Shown one piece after another: positions 14,542-35,942 of a stretch of 35,942 bases of DNA. This stretch comes from a virus. The DNA lies in IMG/VR virus record IMGVR_UViG_3300042347_000453; one strand, written 5' to 3'. Position 1 is the stretch's first letter. Each line of letters opens with the position of its first letter. The position numbers were made by a program, and so were the translations under genes. Under the pieces are notes generated by a model. That model was not told the DNA's origin, made no database searches, and was given only the letters and a program-made list of their open reading frames with translations.

Positions 14542-14556
14542 ACCACAAAAAAGTGC

Positions 14557-14584
14557 TTGCATAGTCTTTGTGAGTGTGTATAAT
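14557..14584 (+). promoter_or_regulatory. Promoter P1 (TTGCAT-16-TATAAT with GTGTG just upstream of -10)
   Basis: ttgcatagtctttgtgagtgtgtataat. First of six near-identical promoters. Confidence 0.75.
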
Positions 14585-14607
14585 ACTAATCATTCACAGG
14601 AGATTAT

Positions 14608-16569: not shown

Positions 16570-17316
16570 ATGAGCCAACAGGAATTTTACGAAACAGTAC
16601 AACGTGAAGAGGAGTATTTAATGAAAGCATCAGCCGCATTTGTACGCGCCCAGGCAGGATTCGGCGCAGCACTGAAAACCAGCACTAACCCGCATTTCCG
16701 CAGCCGATACGCTGATTTAAGCGCTTGCGTCGAAGCTGTAATCGACAGTCTGCACAAAAACGGCTTTGCCCTGATGCAAAAAACCCACGAGTGTGAATCT
16801 GGCGTGGCGGTGGAAACAATACTGATGCACGAAAGCGGTGAGCAGATCAGCGGCGGGATTTTGCGCGTACCAACAAGCAAGCAAGACCCGCAAGGGTACG
16901 GCTCGGCTTTAACGTATGCGCGACGTTATAGTTTGATGGCAGTGTGTGGCATTGCGCCAGAAGATGACGATGGTAACGCAACAAGCAAGCCAAAACCCGC
17001 TGAAAAAAAAATGCAAATACCCGCTAACGTAGGTGGTATGGACTATTTTGACAAGTGTAACGAACAGGAACGCGCCCTAATTCTTGACTTTTCGATGGAA
17101 ATTGAAGGCGCTGATGACCAAGGCGCATTCGACGCATACACCAAGGCTATACAAACCTTAGACATTGATCAAAAGGCCGCGCTATGGTCAAAAGTAAGCA
17201 GTCAAAAACGAACGGCCATTAAAAAGATTGGCCAAGCTAAGAATGCAGAAAAAAATACATGGACTGATGTTGCACAGTGCGGCGGCATACTAATGGCGAC
17301 GGAGATTGTTCCATGA
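16570..17316 (+). CDS. erf: ERF-family single-strand annealing protein
   Basis: FRSRYADLSACVEAV and GYGSALTYARRYSLMAVCGIAPEDDDGN motifs. ggagg SD. Confidence 0.85.
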   Translation: MSQQEFYETVQREEEYLMKASAAFVRAQAGFGAALKTSTNPHFRSRYADLSACVEAVIDSLHKNGFALMQKTHECESGVAVETILMHESGEQISGGILRVPTSKQDPQGYGSALTYARRYSLMAVCGIAPEDDDGNATSKPKPAEKKMQIPANVGGMDYFDKCNEQERALILDFSMEIEGADDQGAFDAYTKAIQTLDIDQKAALWSKVSSQKRTAIKKIGQAKNAEKNTWTDVAQCGGILMATEIVP

Positions 17317-19409: not shown

Positions 19410-19494
19410 TCATTAGCGACTGGCTCAAGATGCCGTTTTTCACTTGAAAAGTGCGCCAGCCCGGTAATTTCCACCTTGGGCTAGTCACTAATGA
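19410..19494 (+). promoter_or_regulatory. 12-bp inverted repeat pair TCATTAGCGACT / AGTCACTAATGA spanning the leader of the initiator gene
   Basis: 19410..19421 and 19483..19494 are complementary at 11 of 12 positions. The right arm overlaps the SD (gagga) of the 19502 gene. Confidence 0.4.
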
Positions 19495-19501
19495 GGACAG
19501 T

Positions 19502-20209
19502 ATGAGTACAAAGATCATGGCCTTGGTCTGGCCGCTTCAAATGCCGCTGCTGGCAAAATCTGTATATATATCCCTGGCTGATAATTCTAACGATCACGGC
19601 ACCTGCTGGCCGTCAATAGCTACTATTTCTGAGCGTGTTTGCGCAACAGATCGAGCTGTACAAAAAGCCATTTTATGGCTAGAACAAAACGGCGCACTGA
19701 CCCGCGAAATGAGTACCGGGAGATCGACTAAGTATTTACTAACCCCCGAACAATATTCACCCCCGAACGACGTTCACCCCCGAACCACGTTCACCACGCC
19801 CCCGAACGTAGTTCACCCCACCCCCGAACCACGTTCACCCCACCCCCGAACGACGTTCACCCTAACCGTAATAGAACCGTCAAAGAACCGTAAGGGAACC
19901 GTAAATATAAAGCCCGATAATTTGCTGGCCGGAGTTAGCGAAAAAATAGCGCATGATTTTATTGCACTGCGGAAAGCCAAAAAAGCACCGGTAACGGAAA
20001 CCGCGCTTGCTGGAATCAAACGCGAAGCGGAAAAAGCCGGGTATTCGCTTGAACGCGCATTGCAAACCTGTTGTGAACGAGGATGGGTTGGATTCAAAGC
20101 GGAATGGGTTGACAAAAACGTACCAATGGTTGACAAAAACGACGCAAAAACCCGAAACCTGGAAGCAAAACGCATGCTTGGATTTTTAGACGAGGTGATT
20201 GATGTTTAA
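19502..20209 (+). CDS. Replication initiator (lambda O-like; N-terminal wHTH, iterons inside the gene)
   Basis: The N-terminus (SVYISLADNSNDHGTCWPSIATISERVCATDRAVQKAILWLEQNGAL) is an HTH. The central P/T/H-rich linker is encoded by the iterons. Confidence 0.7.
   Translation: MSTKIMALVWPLQMPLLAKSVYISLADNSNDHGTCWPSIATISERVCATDRAVQKAILWLEQNGALTREMSTGRSTKYLLTPEQYSPPNDVHPRTTFTTPPNVVHPTPEPRSPHPRTTFTLTVIEPSKNRKGTVNIKPDNLLAGVSEKIAHDFIALRKAKKAPVTETALAGIKREAEKAGYSLERALQTCCERGWVGFKAEWVDKNVPMVDKNDAKTRNLEAKRMLGFLDEVIDV
19743..19860. repeat. Origin iterons: six copies of CCCC(C)GAAC-NNN(N)-GTTCAC
   Basis: Copies at 19743, 19761, 19778, 19799, 19821 and 19843. Each has an internal GAAC/GTTC dyad. Confidence 0.8.
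19864..19907. repeat. Four phased AACCGT repeats (exact 11-bp period) leading into an AT-rich stretch; ori-flanking element
   Basis: AACCGT at 19864, 19875, 19886 and 19897, followed by aaatataaagcccgataattt. Confidence 0.65.
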
Positions 20210-20915
20210 GAATGATTTTGACGACTTTGAAGCATTGCTTGTCAGTACAGCAGAACTGATGGGCAAGAACTCGCCCAAGTCGGGGCAGGTTGCGATGTTT
20301 TTCCGTGTTATGGCTCGGTATAGCATCGAGGACATTAGAAGCGCTTTAGAGGCGCATTTACGTGATTCTGACCGAGGCCGATTTTTCCCAGCCCCGGCTG
20401 ACCTGATCGCAAAAATAGACGCACGACAAGACCCGCGCCCGGATGCTGACGAAGCGTGGGCAACGGCACTGAAAGCGCAAGATGAGTTTGAAACCGTGGT
20501 CTGGACGCAAGACATGGCGCAAGCCTGGGGAATTTGTAAGCCTGTTTTAGCAATGGGCGATGAAGTGGGCGCGAGAATGGCATTTAAAGACGCTTATAAC
20601 CGGATTGTGCGCGAATCTAAAGAACGCGGCGAGAAAGTAGTCTGGAATGTGTCGCTTGGCTTTGATGCCAAAAAAAGAACGCAAGCGATAGAACACGCTC
20701 GACAGATCGGCAGAGATGTTCCGTTTCTTGAAAATAACGTGCCATTGCTTGAACAAAAAATGCCGGACGGTGTTCGGAAAAAACTTAAAGACTTGCTTTC
20801 GATACTAAAGTCACCAAAACCTGCCTGGCATGAAAAAGGCCAAGCGGAACGCGCAGAGTTTGATGCGCGGAAAAAACAGGCTGAAAAAAAAGTACGCGAG
20901 TATCTTGATTTGTGA
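20202..20915 (+). CDS. Replication protein (lambda P-like, putative helicase loader)
   Basis: Follows the O-like gene with overlap. RGRFFPAPADLI resembles the P-family FLPSPGQF motif. Weak assignment. Confidence 0.45.
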   Translation: MFKNDFDDFEALLVSTAELMGKNSPKSGQVAMFFRVMARYSIEDIRSALEAHLRDSDRGRFFPAPADLIAKIDARQDPRPDADEAWATALKAQDEFETVVWTQDMAQAWGICKPVLAMGDEVGARMAFKDAYNRIVRESKERGEKVVWNVSLGFDAKKRTQAIEHARQIGRDVPFLENNVPLLEQKMPDGVRKKLKDLLSILKSPKPAWHEKGQAERAEFDARKKQAEKKVREYLDL

Positions 20916-21555: not shown

Positions 21556-21900
21556 ATGTGTGGCGGTGGCGAAATTGGTAGACGTTACCTTAGATGCGAA
21601 ACCGGGGCGACCTGGCAAGCAATAGAACACGCTCGACAGTTAGGCCACGATGTACCGTTGCTGGAAAACAACACGCCGTTACTAGAGCAGAAAATGCCCG
21701 AAGACGTGCGAGAGAAGCTAAAAGACTTGCTGACGATACTGACCGCACCAAAAACCGCCTGGCACGAAAAAGGCGAAGCGGAACGCGCAGAGTTTGAAGC
21801 GAGAAAAAAAGAAGCTGAAAAAAGAGTGCGCGATTTTATTGATAAGAACTTGACAGACCCTTTCGGTGATGTAAACTACACACAAAATGAAGGAGAGTGA
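21556..21900 (+). pseudogene. Truncated duplicate of the C-terminal ~75 codons of the P-like gene, fused to an unrelated 5' end
   Basis: IEHARQLGHDVPLLENNTPLLEQKMPEDVREKLKDLLTILTAPKTAWHEKGEAERAEFEARKKEAEKRVRDF parallels the end of 20202..20915. No SD precedes the ATG at 21556. Confidence 0.6.
21560..21585 (+). pseudogene. tRNA-Leu-like 5' fragment (acceptor 5' strand plus D-arm only)
   Basis: GTGGCGG-TG-GCG-AAATTGGTAGA-CGT matches the class II tRNA D-arm signature. No anticodon arm or T-arm follows. Confidence 0.35.
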
Positions 21901-22296: not shown

Positions 22297-22506
22297 ATGA
22301 CTTGGCAACCTATAGAGACTGCACCGAAGGATGGAACTGTTGTTATCGTGCGCGGGTTCTACGATGCTGATGGTAAGTTGTTTATGAAAGCGGCGGCGGC
22401 GCAATACAGCAAGAGTTGGATGAGGGACAACCATGGATATGGTTATACGGTTTCATGTTACCCAACTCTCTGGATGCCGTTACCAGAACTAACTAAAGGA
22501 GAGTAA
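22297..22506 (+). CDS. DUF551-like protein (69 aa)
   Basis: WQPIETAPKDGTVVIV signature, paralogous in motif to 16330..16560. Confidence 0.65.
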   Translation: MTWQPIETAPKDGTVVIVRGFYDADGKLFMKAAAAQYSKSWMRDNHGYGYTVSCYPTLWMPLPELTKGE

Positions 22507-22509
22507 AAC

Positions 22510-22737
22510 ATGAGTATTAAAATAAACGCTGACGAACTAGACACATTAACACGCGAAGAACTGATTGATTTAATCAAACTTAAAAAAATTGACGCTTATC
22601 TGGAATCAAATATATTTGAAATATCATCAGAGGAAATGGTTAATTGTATTAAAAAACATTCAAAAGAAATAGCTGAAAGTGTAGAAAAAAACAATAAATT
22701 ATTAGCCAAGTTAAAACGGTTAAACAAAGGAGAGTAA
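22510..22737 (+). CDS. Hypothetical protein (75 aa)
   Basis: Conserved junctions on both sides. Confidence 0.65.
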   Translation: MSIKINADELDTLTREELIDLIKLKKIDAYLESNIFEISSEEMVNCIKKHSKEIAESVEKNNKLLAKLKRLNKGE

Positions 22738-22740
22738 GAC

Positions 22741-22923
22741 ATGGTAAAGACCTATGAAGAAATGAAAGCATGGATTAACGAAAAACCGGGGGAGCGTTTT
22801 TTTGGTTGCCCGAAATGTGAGGGTACTGACAAATGGTGCATTCTTGAACTGGATGACGAACGTGGTGCTGTATGCGAAAGACACGGCGTAATAGTTCCTA
22901 ACGTAGAAAATAAAGGTAAATAA
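22741..22923 (+). CDS. Small zinc-ribbon protein (60 aa)
   Basis: CPKCEG...C.....C pattern, conserved junctions. Confidence 0.6.
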   Translation: MVKTYEEMKAWINEKPGERFFGCPKCEGTDKWCILELDDERGAVCERHGVIVPNVENKGK

Positions 22924-22926
22924 GAC

Positions 22927-23133
22927 ATGGAGGTTAAGCATTTCCAAGCCTGGGCAGTAATATTCAAAGACGGGGAACCTATGCGCCTTAGTTTGTCTCG
23001 TGGTCGAAAGTCGTCAATCGCGTTGGCGCGGCGTTATTTTGGTGTTCCGTGGAAGGCGCTTAAAGGGCGTGGGATGCGATGCGTGCAGGTAACTATTGAG
23101 ACACCCAACGCCCGAGTTCAGCCGCTGCCGTAG
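22927..23133 (+). CDS. Hypothetical protein (68 aa); last ~10 codons and the stop are encoded by attC-like site A
   Basis: The frame runs from AT-rich phage DNA into the GC-rich hairpin. The TAG stop lies in the hairpin loop. Confidence 0.6.
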   Translation: MEVKHFQAWAVIFKDGEPMRLSLSRGRKSSIALARRYFGVPWKALKGRGMRCVQVTIETPNARVQPLP

Positions 23134-23160
23134 GCAGTCGGCTGGAACGAAGTGTTAGGC
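23103..23160. repeat. attC-like site A (58 bp)
   Basis: ACCCAAC|GCCCGA|GTTCAGCCG|CTGCCGTAGGCAGT|CGGCTGGAAC|GAAGT|GTTAGGC. The AAC/GTT R box pairs, the spacers are unpaired, and the L box is 9 bp with one bulged G. Confidence 0.7.
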
Positions 23161-23185
23161 CCCATGTTGAACGGAGAGGAAGACG

Positions 23186-23425
23186 ATGCAGACCGAAACA
23201 ATAGACCGGCTCTTTCTGGAGCTTTCGCAGGTGACGCAGGCAACGACAGCCAAGGAACTTGCCATGCGTGCGGCGCTGGCAGACATGCTGGCAGGCTGGC
23301 GCTACATCCGGCAGTCTCACGGCGACCTATACGGCGTGGGGTGGGACCGCGCACAGGAAAAGGCCGAGAAAGCGCTGGGCTTGCAGCCTGGGCAAGAAAT
23401 GCCGGCCGAGTGGTTTGGGGCCTAA
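23186..23425 (+). CDS. Cassette-borne hypothetical protein (79 aa)
   Basis: ggagagga SD 5 nt upstream of the ATG. Balanced helical sequence (MQTETIDRLFLELSQVTQATTAKEL...). The TAA stop is embedded in GCCTAAC of site B. Confidence 0.7.
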   Translation: MQTETIDRLFLELSQVTQATTAKELAMRAALADMLAGWRYIRQSHGDLYGVGWDRAQEKAEKALGLQPGQEMPAEWFGA

Positions 23426-23476
23426 CGCAGAGTTCAGCGGCGAGCGTAGCGAATCCGCTGGAACGACGGGTTATGT
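23420..23476. repeat. attC-like site B (57 bp)
   Basis: GCCTAAC|GCAGA|GTTCAGCGG|CGAGCGTAGCGAAT|CCGCTGGAAC|GACGG|GTTATGT. Same architecture as site A, with a compensatory C:G to G:C swap in the L stem. Confidence 0.7.
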
Positions 23477-23487
23477 GAAAAGGAAAA

Positions 23488-23730
23488 ATGATGAATAAGA
23501 TTGAATGCAGGTGCATAGATGAAGTAACAGAAAGCGTTGAGCGTTTTATAGCTTGGAGCAAAACGTTGCCCGGCACTGGTGGGTTTGTTCCGGTTCCAGA
23601 TGAAGTGCGAGTAAAAACTTTTCAACCAAATTGCTTAAAGCCTTGCGGTTCATATAAAGAACGGCTTGCTACTATTCACCCTTCTCAAGAACATTTAGAT
23701 TTCCTAAAAAAAGGAGTAATAAGCAAATGA
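23488..23730 (+). CDS. Hypothetical protein (80 aa)
   Basis: aaaggaaaaATGATG start, ORF track entry. Confidence 0.65.
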   Translation: MMNKIECRCIDEVTESVERFIAWSKTLPGTGGFVPVPDEVRVKTFQPNCLKPCGSYKERLATIHPSQEHLDFLKKGVISK

Positions 23731-23888
23731 AAGACTACAGCGAAGACGTACTCAAAATACAAGAAGCTGGCAGAAAATTGCCGGTGCTAATGATGAAAGA
23801 CAAAAACGCTGCATTGTTGTTTTTAGCGCAAACAATCATATCAGCACAACAAATAATCGAATACCTGAATGAGCCAGCAAACGAATGA
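23727..23888 (+). CDS. Hypothetical protein (53 aa)
   Basis: ATGA overlap. Translated by hand (MKDYSEDVLKIQEAGRKLPVLMMKDKNAALLF...). Confidence 0.5.
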   Translation: MKDYSEDVLKIQEAGRKLPVLMMKDKNAALLFLAQTIISAQQIIEYLNEPANE

Positions 23889-24090
23889 ACGCGCCGAGAC
23901 CTTTGAGCGTTTCTGCTGCGCCGTCGAGAATTTTCAGCATGGGAAAAGAGATAAGGTCGCGGACTACTTGCGAGACATTGAAGCCCGACTTGGACGCGAC
24001 ATTGCCGAGCGCGTCAAAACCAGCATTCTTGCCTGTGCGAAGTCATCAGGCTGGCTTAGAGATGTCGAAAGGCTGCGCGTTAAGCCCTAA
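23869..24090 (+). CDS. Hypothetical protein (73 aa)
   Basis: Preferred over the overlapping 23885..24175 frame because its composition is more protein-like. Confidence 0.5.
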   Translation: MSQQTNERAETFERFCCAVENFQHGKRDKVADYLRDIEARLGRDIAERVKTSILACAKSSGWLRDVERLRVKP

Positions 24091-24158
24091 AGAGCGGGAG
24101 CTAATGCAGATATTTGGCAGGCTTCCATTTTCTTTTGAGTGCGATTGGGACAAAAGGC

Positions 24159-24193: not shown

Positions 24194-24355
24194 ATGGACA
24201 CTAAAAAAATCGGTAAGCCGAAAACAATTGAAGACGCAAAGCGCGTAAACATTTACATTTCTAAAAAAGCGCACGAAAAAGCGAAAAAGATCGGCGGCGG
24301 AAACTTTTCTGCTGGCGTGACAAAGCTGATAAATGAGTATGATCGTCGGACTTGA
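24194..24355 (+). CDS. Ribbon-helix-helix (CopG/Arc-like) small DNA-binding protein (53 aa)
   Basis: Translated by hand. KRVNIYISKKAHEKAKKIGGGNFSAGVTKLI is a typical RHH strand-helix-helix. Confidence 0.5.
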   Translation: MDTKKIGKPKTIEDAKRVNIYISKKAHEKAKKIGGGNFSAGVTKLINEYDRRT

Positions 24356-24764
24356 CCCAGGTACAAATACGGGAGTAGCTATATTTGAAGACGGAAAGCT
24401 TACAAAGCTAACCACCTGGACGCCGATTCAGCTAATAACGCTGCTTTCTAGCCTTTCAGTCAAAAGCGTGATATTCGAGGATTCGCGCTTGACTTCGCCA
24501 GTCTGGAGCCGTGGGACTAGCCAGGCCGCCAGGCTAAAGATAGCCCGGAATGTCGGCCAAGTGGACGCTATATGCAATTTAATATGCGCCCTATGCGAAG
24601 AAATGAAAATCAGCGCCCACGGAATAAGCCCGAAGCACAAAGGGCGCAAGCTGGACGCTGAGACTTTTAACAAGCTGACTGGCTGGGACAAAAAAAGCAA
24701 CCAACACGAGCGTGATGCGGCAATGTGTGTTTTTTCACATGGCGGAATAAAAGGGCTTGCATAG
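24333..24764 (+). CDS. RuvC-like Holliday junction resolvase
   Basis: IVGLDPGTNTGVAIF (first catalytic Asp), VIFEDS, and NQHERDAAM at the C-terminus. Confidence 0.75.
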   Translation: MSMIVGLDPGTNTGVAIFEDGKLTKLTTWTPIQLITLLSSLSVKSVIFEDSRLTSPVWSRGTSQAARLKIARNVGQVDAICNLICALCEEMKISAHGISPKHKGRKLDAETFNKLTGWDKKSNQHERDAAMCVFSHGGIKGLA

Positions 24765-24784
24765 GCTTTTGGAGTGTGTATAAT
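24757..24784 (+). promoter_or_regulatory. Promoter P5 (TTGCAT-16-TATAAT, GTGTG context)
   Basis: ttgcataggcttttggagtgtgtataat, nearly identical to P1. Confidence 0.75.
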
Positions 24785-24832
24785 TCTCTACATGGTTAGC
24801 AATAAAGCTAATCAACATTAGGAGAATGAAAA

Positions 24833-34573: not shown

Positions 34574-34738
34574 ATGACACTCGAATTTTTAATTGATATG
34601 TGTGAAAAGCGGTTAAATCATTTGACCGTGCAGCGTGCATCCGCTTCGGAAATTGGCGACATTAGCCAGATCGAACGTATTGACGCAGAAATTACAACCA
34701 CACAAACAACATTAAATCAACTCAATAGCCTGATTTAA
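34574..34738 (+). CDS. Hypothetical protein (54 aa)
   Basis: ATG at 34574 after gaggaatat. Confidence 0.5.
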   Translation: MTLEFLIDMCEKRLNHLTVQRASASEIGDISQIERIDAEITTTQTTLNQLNSLI

Positions 34739-35298
34739 TGCTGCTGCTGTTTTTCCAGCCGACTACTGGCAATCAAACCTTAACGCAAACCGCAAGGTTT
34801 AACAATGCCCAGACTTTTTATAGTGGCACTGTTACGCAGGCTGGAGGAACGCAGACACTAACGCAAACGGCGCGGTTTAATAATGCCAATGCGTTTTATG
34901 GCGGGACAGTAACCCAAAGCGGCGGAACGCAGACAGTAACGCAAACCGTCCGCTTTAACAATACGCAAGTATTCTACGGCGGCACGGTCTCTGGTGGAGA
35001 ACAGACTACCGGAGGCCATTATTACGAGTTTTGGCGTAAAAAATGGGCAAAACAGTGGGAAACCAAAACCCCGGACATTGAAGAAGTCATAGAGTTCATT
35101 GAGGAAGAACCAGAACAAGCTATAGAAGTGGCGGCAACAGTCGCGCCAAAATATGCATCAATTCAGCCAGAAACGCTCAAAATCAATGAAAAATTAGCAG
35201 AAAACATCGCTAATCAAATAATTGTTGCAATAAAAATACAACAGCTTAAAATCGCGCAAGAGGAAGAAGATATAGAAACCCTATTATTGATAGCCTAA
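34738..35298 (+). CDS. Repeat-containing protein (186 aa): three 26-aa repeats plus an acidic C-terminus
   Basis: QTLTQTARFNNAQTFYSGTVTQAGGT repeated three times, followed by an E-rich tail. Confidence 0.6.
   Translation: MLLLFFQPTTGNQTLTQTARFNNAQTFYSGTVTQAGGTQTLTQTARFNNANAFYGGTVTQSGGTQTVTQTVRFNNTQVFYGGTVSGGEQTTGGHYYEFWRKKWAKQWETKTPDIEEVIEFIEEEPEQAIEVAATVAPKYASIQPETLKINEKLAENIANQIIVAIKIQQLKIAQEEEDIETLLLIA
34774..35007 (+). repeat. In-frame tandem repeat, 3 x 78 nt
   Basis: Three diverged 78-nt units encode the 26-aa repeats. Confidence 0.8.
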
Positions 35299-35605: not shown

Positions 35606-35942
35606 ATGCCATCCATAGCCGAAGCCCTAGAAAGCGCACTCGAACAACACGAAACGACAGAGGCCGAAGTCGCGCCAGAGGTTGCCCCCGAAGTAACCAC
35701 GGAAGTAACTAAAGAACCGAGAGCCAGGTCAGAGGATGGCAAGTTTGCCAAGAAAGAACCCGAAGCCACACCAGAAGTTGCCCCAGAACCCGCCCCGCGC
35801 AAAGCCCCGTCAAGTTGGAAACCCGCAGCACAAGAAGCTTTCCTAAAGGCTGACCGCGGTGAGGCATTGACTGCCGAAGAGATTAAGCTACTAACACAAG
35901 AAGCTGAACGACGCGAATCTGACTTTCATAAGGGCGTTTCAG
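35606..35942 (+). CDS. Capsid scaffolding protein, 5' portion (continues at base 128 / wraps to 1..780)
   Basis: aaaggaaaccactATG start. Acidic PEV/PEA-rich N-terminus. Runs off the contig end in frame with 1..780. Confidence 0.65.
   Translation, partial: MPSIAEALESALEQHETTEAEVAPEVAPEVTTEVTKEPRARSEDGKFAKKEPEATPEVAPEPAPRKAPSSWKPAAQEAFLKADRGEALTAEEIKLLTQEAERRESDFHKGVS
35816..35942. repeat. Terminal direct repeat, copy 2 (identical to 1..127)
   Basis: Base-by-base identity with the first 127 nt. Confidence 0.95.

Follow-up and report, generated by a model that had tools for sequence, protein, structure and literature searches.

The window analysed here is the whole 35,942-nucleotide (nt) stretch of IMG/VR virus record IMGVR_UViG_3300042347_000453, a complete phage contig with nearly all of its long open reading frames (ORFs) on the + strand, which codes for all the phage genes. 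Our analysis concerns two elements of this phage, sites A and B, which stand as direct repeats separated by 260 nt, are 77% identical and bracket an ORF of 79 amino acids (aa), called ORF79. Their anatomy recalls the attC sites of integrons, on which the integron integrase IntI acts. The locus is composed as follows.

22927..23133, + strand: upstream phage ORF, 68 aa, which reads into site A and stops at the loop TAG
23103-23109, + strand: R' box ACCCAAC of site A, with predicted cleavage between A23108 and C23109
23110-23115 and 23149-23153, + strand: spacers of site A, unpaired
23116-23124, + strand: L stem of site A, pairing with 23139-23148
23125-23137, + strand: variable terminal stem-loop of site A, with a GTA triloop
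T 23138 and G 23145, + strand: extrahelical bases of site A
23154-23160, + strand: R'' box GTTAGGC of site A
23186..23425, + strand: ORF79, with a Shine-Dalgarno sequence GGAGAGG at 23173-23179 and its TAA stop inside GCCTAAC
23420-23426, + strand: R' box GCCTAAC of site B, with predicted cleavage between A23425 and C23426
23427-23431 and 23465-23469, + strand: spacers of site B
23432-23440, + strand: L stem of site B, pairing with 23455-23464
23441-23453, + strand: terminal region of site B, containing GCGTAGC
T 23454 and G 23461, + strand: extrahelical bases of site B
23470-23476, + strand: R'' box GTTATGT of site B
23488..23730, + strand: downstream ORF, 80 aa, which travels with the core of site B

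Site A (23103-23160) reads ACCCAAC GCCCGA GTTCAGCCG CTGCC-GTA-GGCAG T CGGCTG G AAC GAAGT GTTAGGC and site B (23420-23476) reads GCCTAAC GCAGA GTTCAGCGG CGAGCGTAGCGAA T CCGCTG G AAC GACGG GTTATGT, both as they had been quoted in a preliminary description of this DNA, which called them attC-like. Each has R' and R'' boxes of the RYYYAAC and GTTRRRY type whose AAC and GTT pair, and an imperfect L stem with its extrahelical bases on the arm opposite the cleaved AAC (T-CSGCTG-G-AAC, the 3' arm on the + strand). In each, central spacers of 5-6 and 5 nt do not pair and the terminal structure is variable, as in attC sites. The L-box pattern is found twice in the window, where 0.00 occurrences are expected (100 shuffles). 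Folded as DNA, site A reaches -15.1 kcal/mol (z -3.4 against shuffled sequence), and in both sites the + strand folds better than the - strand by 0.9-1.6 kcal/mol. A search against Rfam at gathering thresholds returned no match; Rfam has no attC family. Two further points of the preliminary description hold for the segment itself: it is GC-rich (0.58-0.63 at 23000-23500) between AT-richer flanks (about 0.37-0.48), and its ORF has its own Shine-Dalgarno sequence and a stop codon inside the inverse core.

The same L-box pattern is present in 71 IMG/VR contigs, in most of them flanked by YYTAAC-G-N4-5 upstream and by G-N4-GTTAG downstream. When 31 distinct copies are aligned, AAC, GTT and the extra G before AAC show no variation, and the T before the 3' arm of the L box is kept in at least 90% of them. 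The terminal stem-loop differs from copy to copy in both length and sequence, and at 5 positions of its stem a change on one side is matched by a change on the other. The preliminary description had pointed to a compensatory C:G to G:C swap between the L stems of sites A and B as a sign of selection on structure, and the swap itself is borne out by the family: the S positions of the L stem are complementary in all 73 distinct copies flanked by R boxes, from viral and bacterial contigs, against 81 complementary and 46 not among the pattern matches without R boxes.

A covariance model, R1, was built solely from the phage-contig copies. It scores site A at 71.2 bits (E 1e-18) on the + strand and 22.9 bits on the - strand, and site B at 64.8 bits (E 1e-16) and 22.9 bits, respectively; it finds no further site elsewhere in the window, where the next best score is 13 bits. 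The aadA1 attC of plasmid R100 (Tn21/In2) is also matched by R1: the strand opposite aadA1 scores 53.4 bits (E 3e-13) and the gene strand 17 bits, and the model aligns end to end with the bottom strand of this site. A second class 1 attC, of the aacA4 type, scores 46 bits (E 1e-11), again antisense to its gene. Sites of the same family form bacterial arrays in Pelomonas sp. KK5, Pseudoduganella violaceinigra and several metagenome-assembled genomes (MAGs). IntI homologues 50-58% identical to IntI1 adjoin such arrays in Pseudoduganella and several MAGs (our loci L073, L088 and L183), and, relative to the R1 model strand, intI is downstream in 5 of 7 cases, as canonical integron geometry requires.

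In a folded attC site, it is the bottom strand that has the cleaved AAC in R' and the extrahelical bases on the opposite arm, which in attCaadA7 are G16 and T23 (Nivina et al. 2016, PMC5027507). With position 1 at the 3' end of the + strand, sites A and B likewise have G at 16 and T at 23. This comparison, with each strand folded, and the strand scores of R1 agree with the preliminary description, which had pointed to a likeness to the bottom strand of attCaadA7 and had proposed that the + strand is recombinogenic, with the ORF antisense. Because R1 matches the aadA1 attC opposite aadA1, the + strand is the recombinogenic bottom strand; as far as sequence can establish it, sites A and B are genuine integron attC sites.

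The variable tips of the family often read GCGNAGC or CCGNAGG on the bottom strand: 23446-23452 of the window is GCGTAGC, contigs L018 and L023 have GCGAAGC, and GCGAAGC stands at the same place in the aadA1 bottom strand. DNA motifs of this type form mini-hairpins with GNA triloops that are noted for their unusual stability. Three contigs classed as viral in IMG/VR encode an IntI homologue (52-56% identical to IntI1) at L024 1400-3749, L052 907-3979 and L043 9532-12869, and they carry attC sites of the window's family, two each in L024 and L052 and one in L043. It is possible that they are complete phage integrons, or else misclassified bacterial DNA.

The boundaries of the mobile unit come from allelic comparison. 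A metagenome contig, L205, found in a metagenome collection by anchoring on the upstream gene, lacks exactly 317 bp; to the left of this gap it matches the window at 97.3% identity (1543 nt) and to the right at 99.4% (325 nt). Its junction reads GAGACACCCAAC followed by GCAGAGTTCAGCGGCGAGCG (also written as GAGACACCCAAC followed by GCAGAGTTCAGCGGCGAGCGTAGCGAATCCGCTGGAACGACGGGTTATGTGAAAAGG), the 5' box ACCCAAC of site A being joined to the core of site B. A second contig, L018, is 96-98% identical to the window and holds two other cassettes in the slot, with a different attC core after the 5' box: its match runs to GAGACACCCAACG, ends after ACCCAACG and sets in again at CTAAC of site B, from where it extends through the downstream gene. 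The 68-aa upstream ORF, with the resident R' box ACCCAA at its end, matches L018 and L205 without a difference as far as ACCCAACG. These two contigs, of which L205 is the empty-site allele, also agree with the window throughout the core of site B, though the sequence upstream of it differs; site B is, on these alignments, the resident site, linked to the downstream gene. The same slot holds one different cassette in contig L071 and a single site in L008. The slot thus exists in at least four allelic states among closely related phages, including a precise empty site, and its cassettes turn over.

Linkage across the viral loci gives the same picture. In site pairs that share the downstream flank only, the core is 91% identical on average, the 3' box is identical in 88% and the 5' box in 6%; in pairs that share the upstream flank only, the median core identity is 0.735, with the 3' box identical in 19% and the 5' box in 63%. 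All 32 informative pairs break between the 5' box and the core, and another cassette occurs behind four unrelated upstream genes, with homology starting at YTAAC. On the strength of the exact 317-bp absence in L205, the breakpoints of L018 and this linkage, the mobile unit is 23109-23425. The cassette (317 bp, 23109..23425, + strand) comprises the core of site A, a 25-nt leader with the Shine-Dalgarno sequence, the 79-aa ORF and a terminal GCCTAA that forms the first six bases of the next R' box. From these alleles the exchange can be narrowed to the shared AACGC, where the predicted bottom-strand cleavage point AA/C also lies.

This terminal GCCTAA is complementary to GTTAGGC of the cassette's own attC, so that the unit is an integron-type cassette: it is discrete, holds one ORF and one attC, and its ends, once joined in a circle, would give a complementary R'/R'' pair. 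Over the family, a 3' box and a 5' box are fully complementary in 56% of cases when they belong to a site and its successor in the array, in 21% when they belong to one site and in 12% of random pairs; such complementarity across neighbouring sites is the signature of circularisable cassettes. In IMG/VR, exact searches for the predicted empty-site junction and for a circular-cassette junction found none.

The alleles also correct the boundaries first proposed. The preliminary description let the cassette begin at G/TT behind site A and assigned site B to it; instead, exchange falls at AA/C of the 5' boxes, and the cassette carries site A. The complementarity between TTAGGC and GCCTAAC on which that proposal leaned is real, but it fits either model. 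A model with exchange at G/TT, taking the + strand as top strand, was rejected: it needs an identical site B core in two unrelated cassettes and an identical upstream gene with two cores. The preliminary description had suggested a search for related phages lacking 23110..23469; in the cassette-free relative L205 the missing unit is 23109-23425.

How, then, would the cassette move? A tblastn search with IntI1 against the window gave no match at E<=10, and no tyrosine recombinase was found among the window ORFs of at least 216 aa scanned with Pfam or PHROGs, in agreement with the preliminary description, which had seen no intI-like gene. The window does not hold a complete integron (intI, attI and the promoter Pc), having neither an IntI homologue nor, among the scanned ORFs, a tyrosine recombinase; it does hold two close attC sites with no intI nearby, which defines a cluster of attC sites lacking an integron integrase (CALIN). 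Since no IntI or tyrosine recombinase was found in the window, an IntI of the host would have to act in trans. We consider it very likely that sites A and B are a two-site CALIN in an integrase-less phage, in which host IntI moves the 317-bp unit at AA/C.

The steps would be the following. When single-stranded, the + strand would fold into an attC hairpin made of the R'/R'' stem, the spacers of 5-6 and 5 nt, the L stem and the variable tip. A host integron integrase would cleave between A and C of 5'-AAC-3' in each R' box, at the 5' end of the site, and cleavage at both R' boxes would insert or excise 23109-23425. ORF79 would be expressed by phage read-through transcription via its own Shine-Dalgarno sequence. 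Exposure of the + strand as lagging-strand template would require a rightward fork direction from the iterons (19758-19862), and a bottom strand on that template favours attC folding and excision (PMC13108822). The enzyme, the timing of recombination and the route to a single strand are the parts of this scheme that we infer.

Several points weigh against it. R1 goes back to sites that were found by a pattern derived from the window. The fold of site B alone is no more stable than that of shuffled sequence (z -0.25), and one base of its R'' box, GTTATGT, is off the GTTRRRY consensus. The junction can be placed only within the shared AACGC. No integrase is encoded in the window, so that the catalyst is deduced. 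Finally, the phage has proteins of its own that could in principle recombine the 77%-identical repeats, an Erf-type annealing protein (16570-17316) and a RuvC-like resolvase (24333-24764). In that case the sites would be short homology linkers through which Erf and the resolvase shuffle gene modules with no integrase at all, as might suit direct repeats in a phage without an integrase. We judge this improbable. The junction in L205 falls within the five nucleotides AACGC, at the very 5' edge of the repeats and outside the longer identical tracts GAGTTCAGC (9 nt) and GCTGGAACGA (10 nt), which argues against plain homologous recombination, and the constant break between 5' box and core in the 32 informative pairs points the same way. 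Homology linkers would also leave unexplained the box complementarity across cassettes and the likeness to functional attC sites.

That the sites number only two and stand without IntI could also mean that they are inert relics, a piece of a bacterial array acquired once by illegitimate recombination, a process raised for the origin of phage CALINs (Qi et al., PMC9892861), and no longer recombining. This is very improbable given the number of allelic states at the slot in close relatives, the precise empty site among them, given the same cassettes behind four upstream genes with homology from YTAAC, and given near-maximal model scores with both extrahelical bases kept. To a role at the RNA level we give hardly any credence. 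The hairpins are intergenic, lie on the transcribed strand and have an internal loop, and attC sites are thought to be weak terminators (PMC9892861), so that they could be terminators or RNase III-type processing sites, as in T7-like phages, with the attC likeness a coincidence. However, no T tract follows either hairpin, a terminator scan calls neither, Rfam gives no match, and the strict conservation of AAC and GTT, G16 and T23, the association with bacterial intI and the cassette gains and losses at AA/C all speak for a site of DNA recombination. The preliminary description had set conserved R and L boxes in related phages against plain terminators, and it is the conservation that is found. 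The hairpins may have a secondary effect on the mRNA beside a recombination role. A CALIN mobilized by host IntI is the reading that we retain.

The ORF79 cassette is inverted compared with canonical cassettes, since ORF79 has the attC bottom strand as its coding strand and follows its own attC; the canonical arrangement, with the ORF on the top strand, upstream of its attC and expressed from Pc, is not the one seen here. Inverted cassettes make up a minority of those in bacterial arrays. Homologues of ORF79 number 223. The cassette occurs with 95-97% protein identity in other, unrelated phage backbones, where it is preceded by an attC and ends in GCCTAAC, and there the L box of the preceding attC is a compensated GCT...AGC. 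Neither ORF79 nor the small ORFs beside it matched a family in Pfam or PHROGs; PF27050 is listed for distant homologues of ORF79, and no family in the local Pfam copy matched those homologues. ORF79 conserves a motif, GWRYIRxSHGDLYGVGWDRAQ, that is common among small phage proteins and occurs at times as a fusion with a Lar-like zinc ribbon. In close relatives (L018 3763-4182, - strand, and L032 3802-4241) the slot holds a cassette for a 139-aa membrane and zinc-ribbon protein. This protein is encoded on the strand opposite to that of the phage genes, as in canonical cassettes, and has a homologue in a Gammaproteobacteria MAG (L151).

The orientation of cassettes differs sharply between viral and bacterial loci. 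Judged by the longest ORF covering each inter-site segment, a crude measure especially in GC-rich DNA, bacterial arrays of this attC family have the ORF on the top strand in 41 cases, on the bottom strand in 1 and ambiguously placed in 8, whereas the viral contigs have it on the top strand in 10, on the bottom strand in 32 and ambiguously placed in 28. Several of these viral contigs are clearly phage, encoding a portal, a DNA polymerase, a primase/helicase or a replication initiator. A candidate rule that phage arrays are always co-oriented with the flanking phage genes was rejected: the window's own lineage follows it, but not every viral contig does. The contrast with bacteria suggests a separate phage cassette pool. 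One could go further and suppose that uncultured phage lineages keep attC platforms of their own in early/accessory regions, trade phage-specific inverted cassettes and hijack host IntI as a gene-shuffling enzyme, a supposition which is tentative and which we regard as rather unlikely. If it were true, the inverted orientation would put the bottom strand on the non-template strand and, with rightward forks from the iteron origin at about 19.8 kb, on the lagging-strand template; phage read-through would express the cassettes, and during replication in an IntI-expressing host they would recombine readily. Phage cassettes would then be silent once captured by a bacterial integron, and phages would be active participants in the cassette economy and not accidental carriers.

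The wider setting of the locus includes the following features.

16570-17316: Erf-type single-strand annealing protein
19451-20209: gene of an HTH_36 replication protein, which contains iterons
22896..22902, + strand: lone R'-type box TCCTAAC without an attC core
24333-24764: RuvC-like Holliday-junction resolvase
Other encoded proteins, from Pfam and PHROGs scans: major head protein, portal, large terminase, adaptor, tail fibre and amidase

The genes of the RuvC-like resolvase and the Erf-type annealing protein lie near the attC region. The lone box at 22896-22902 looks like a further junction of the variable region, either a cassette junction that has lost its attC or a secondary-site insertion: contig L040 follows the window at 99.8% identity to about 22907, where an attC with another cassette takes over, and the homology of L008 to the window begins at 22897. 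The iterons, at least 4 copies of 22 nt at 19758-19862 (CACCCCCGAAC-N-ACGTTCA), lie inside the HTH_36 gene and are probably the phage replication origin. GC skew is positive over the entire + strand.

Positions 1-127 of the window are repeated exactly at 35816-35942, and this 127-nt terminal direct repeat is either a circular-assembly overlap or a case of true direct terminal repeats. A 39-nt element with TTGCAT, a 16-nt spacer and TATAAT occurs twice (14549-14587 and 24749-24787, 87% identical), the second copy 1.3 kb downstream of site B; these elements are probably phage promoters. A 229-nt direct repeat (20681-20909 and 21615-21843, 79% identical) corresponds to paralogous segments in two early genes, and three tandem 78-nt (26-codon) repeats at 34774-35007 lie inside the ORF 34738-35298. 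The portal is only 30-41% identical to the portals of isolated phages, and a megablast search of 22500-24100 against deposited phages gave no match. Searches of the window against the bacterial loci by blastn and tblastx matched the attC sites only, so that no host can be assigned.

Integrons, the chief means of gene capture in multi-drug resistance, are also stores of genes for defence against phages. The part of phages in cassette traffic had rested on a few static arrays and heterologous recombination assays. The window and its relatives offer natural before-and-after alleles, with the crossover at the bottom-strand AAC, which point to integron-type gain and loss of cassettes without a phage-encoded integrase.

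Phage CALINs are a known kind of element, having been published by Qi et al. (2023, PMC9892861), who found integron components in 21 of 10,705 deposited phage genomes, including 17 CALINs, and showed that 5 of 6 phage attC sites tested recombine with IntI1. The elements described there likewise have at least two attC sites within 3-4 kb in phages without intI, and a bacterial IntI acting in trans was proposed for them. The idea that phages have integrase-less attC clusters which a bacterial IntI can recombine had thus already been published; what the window adds as a further member of this kind is cassette turnover. The earlier arrays were static, whereas here an empty site and replacement alleles locate the crossover, and the cassette ORFs are mostly inverted. 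In a blastn search of 50,697 deposited phage records, a family-consensus site and site B gave chance matches only (E 0.4, in tail genes). What is new here is an aadA-like attC family in uncultured phages, alleles that map the crossover and mostly inverted cassettes.

The closest known sites are the attC sites of aadA1 and aadA7 (59-base elements). Length is similar (57-58 nt here, 60 nt there), and the RYYYAAC and GTTRRRY boxes, the unpaired 5-6-nt spacers, alike in sequence too (GCCCGA and GAAGT here, GCTTGA and GAATT in aadA1), the L stem GTTNAGCSG...CSGCTN-G-AAC, the extrahelical G16 and T23 and the GNA-type triloop tip are common to both. Unlike in aadA1 and aadA7, the site here stands upstream of the cassette ORF on the coding strand, and unlike the attC sites of mobile integrons it has no attI, Pc promoter or intI nearby and lies in a phage early/accessory region. 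The sedentary chromosomal integrons of Beta- and Gammaproteobacteria, such as those of Pelomonas sp. KK5 and Pseudoduganella violaceinigra, share with the phage loci GTTCAGCSG...CSGCTGGAAC with R boxes, arrays of near-identical sites and R'/R'' complementarity across each cassette. They differ in that their ORFs lie on the top strand in 41 of 42 clear cases, against 32 of 42 on the bottom strand in viral loci, and in that intI is adjacent in several bacterial arrays. Finally, a parallel can be drawn with phage morons, which are also small GC-atypical ORFs between conserved phage genes and absent from close relatives. However, classical morons bring a promoter and a terminator and have no defined recombination sites, whereas the unit described here has attC crossover points.

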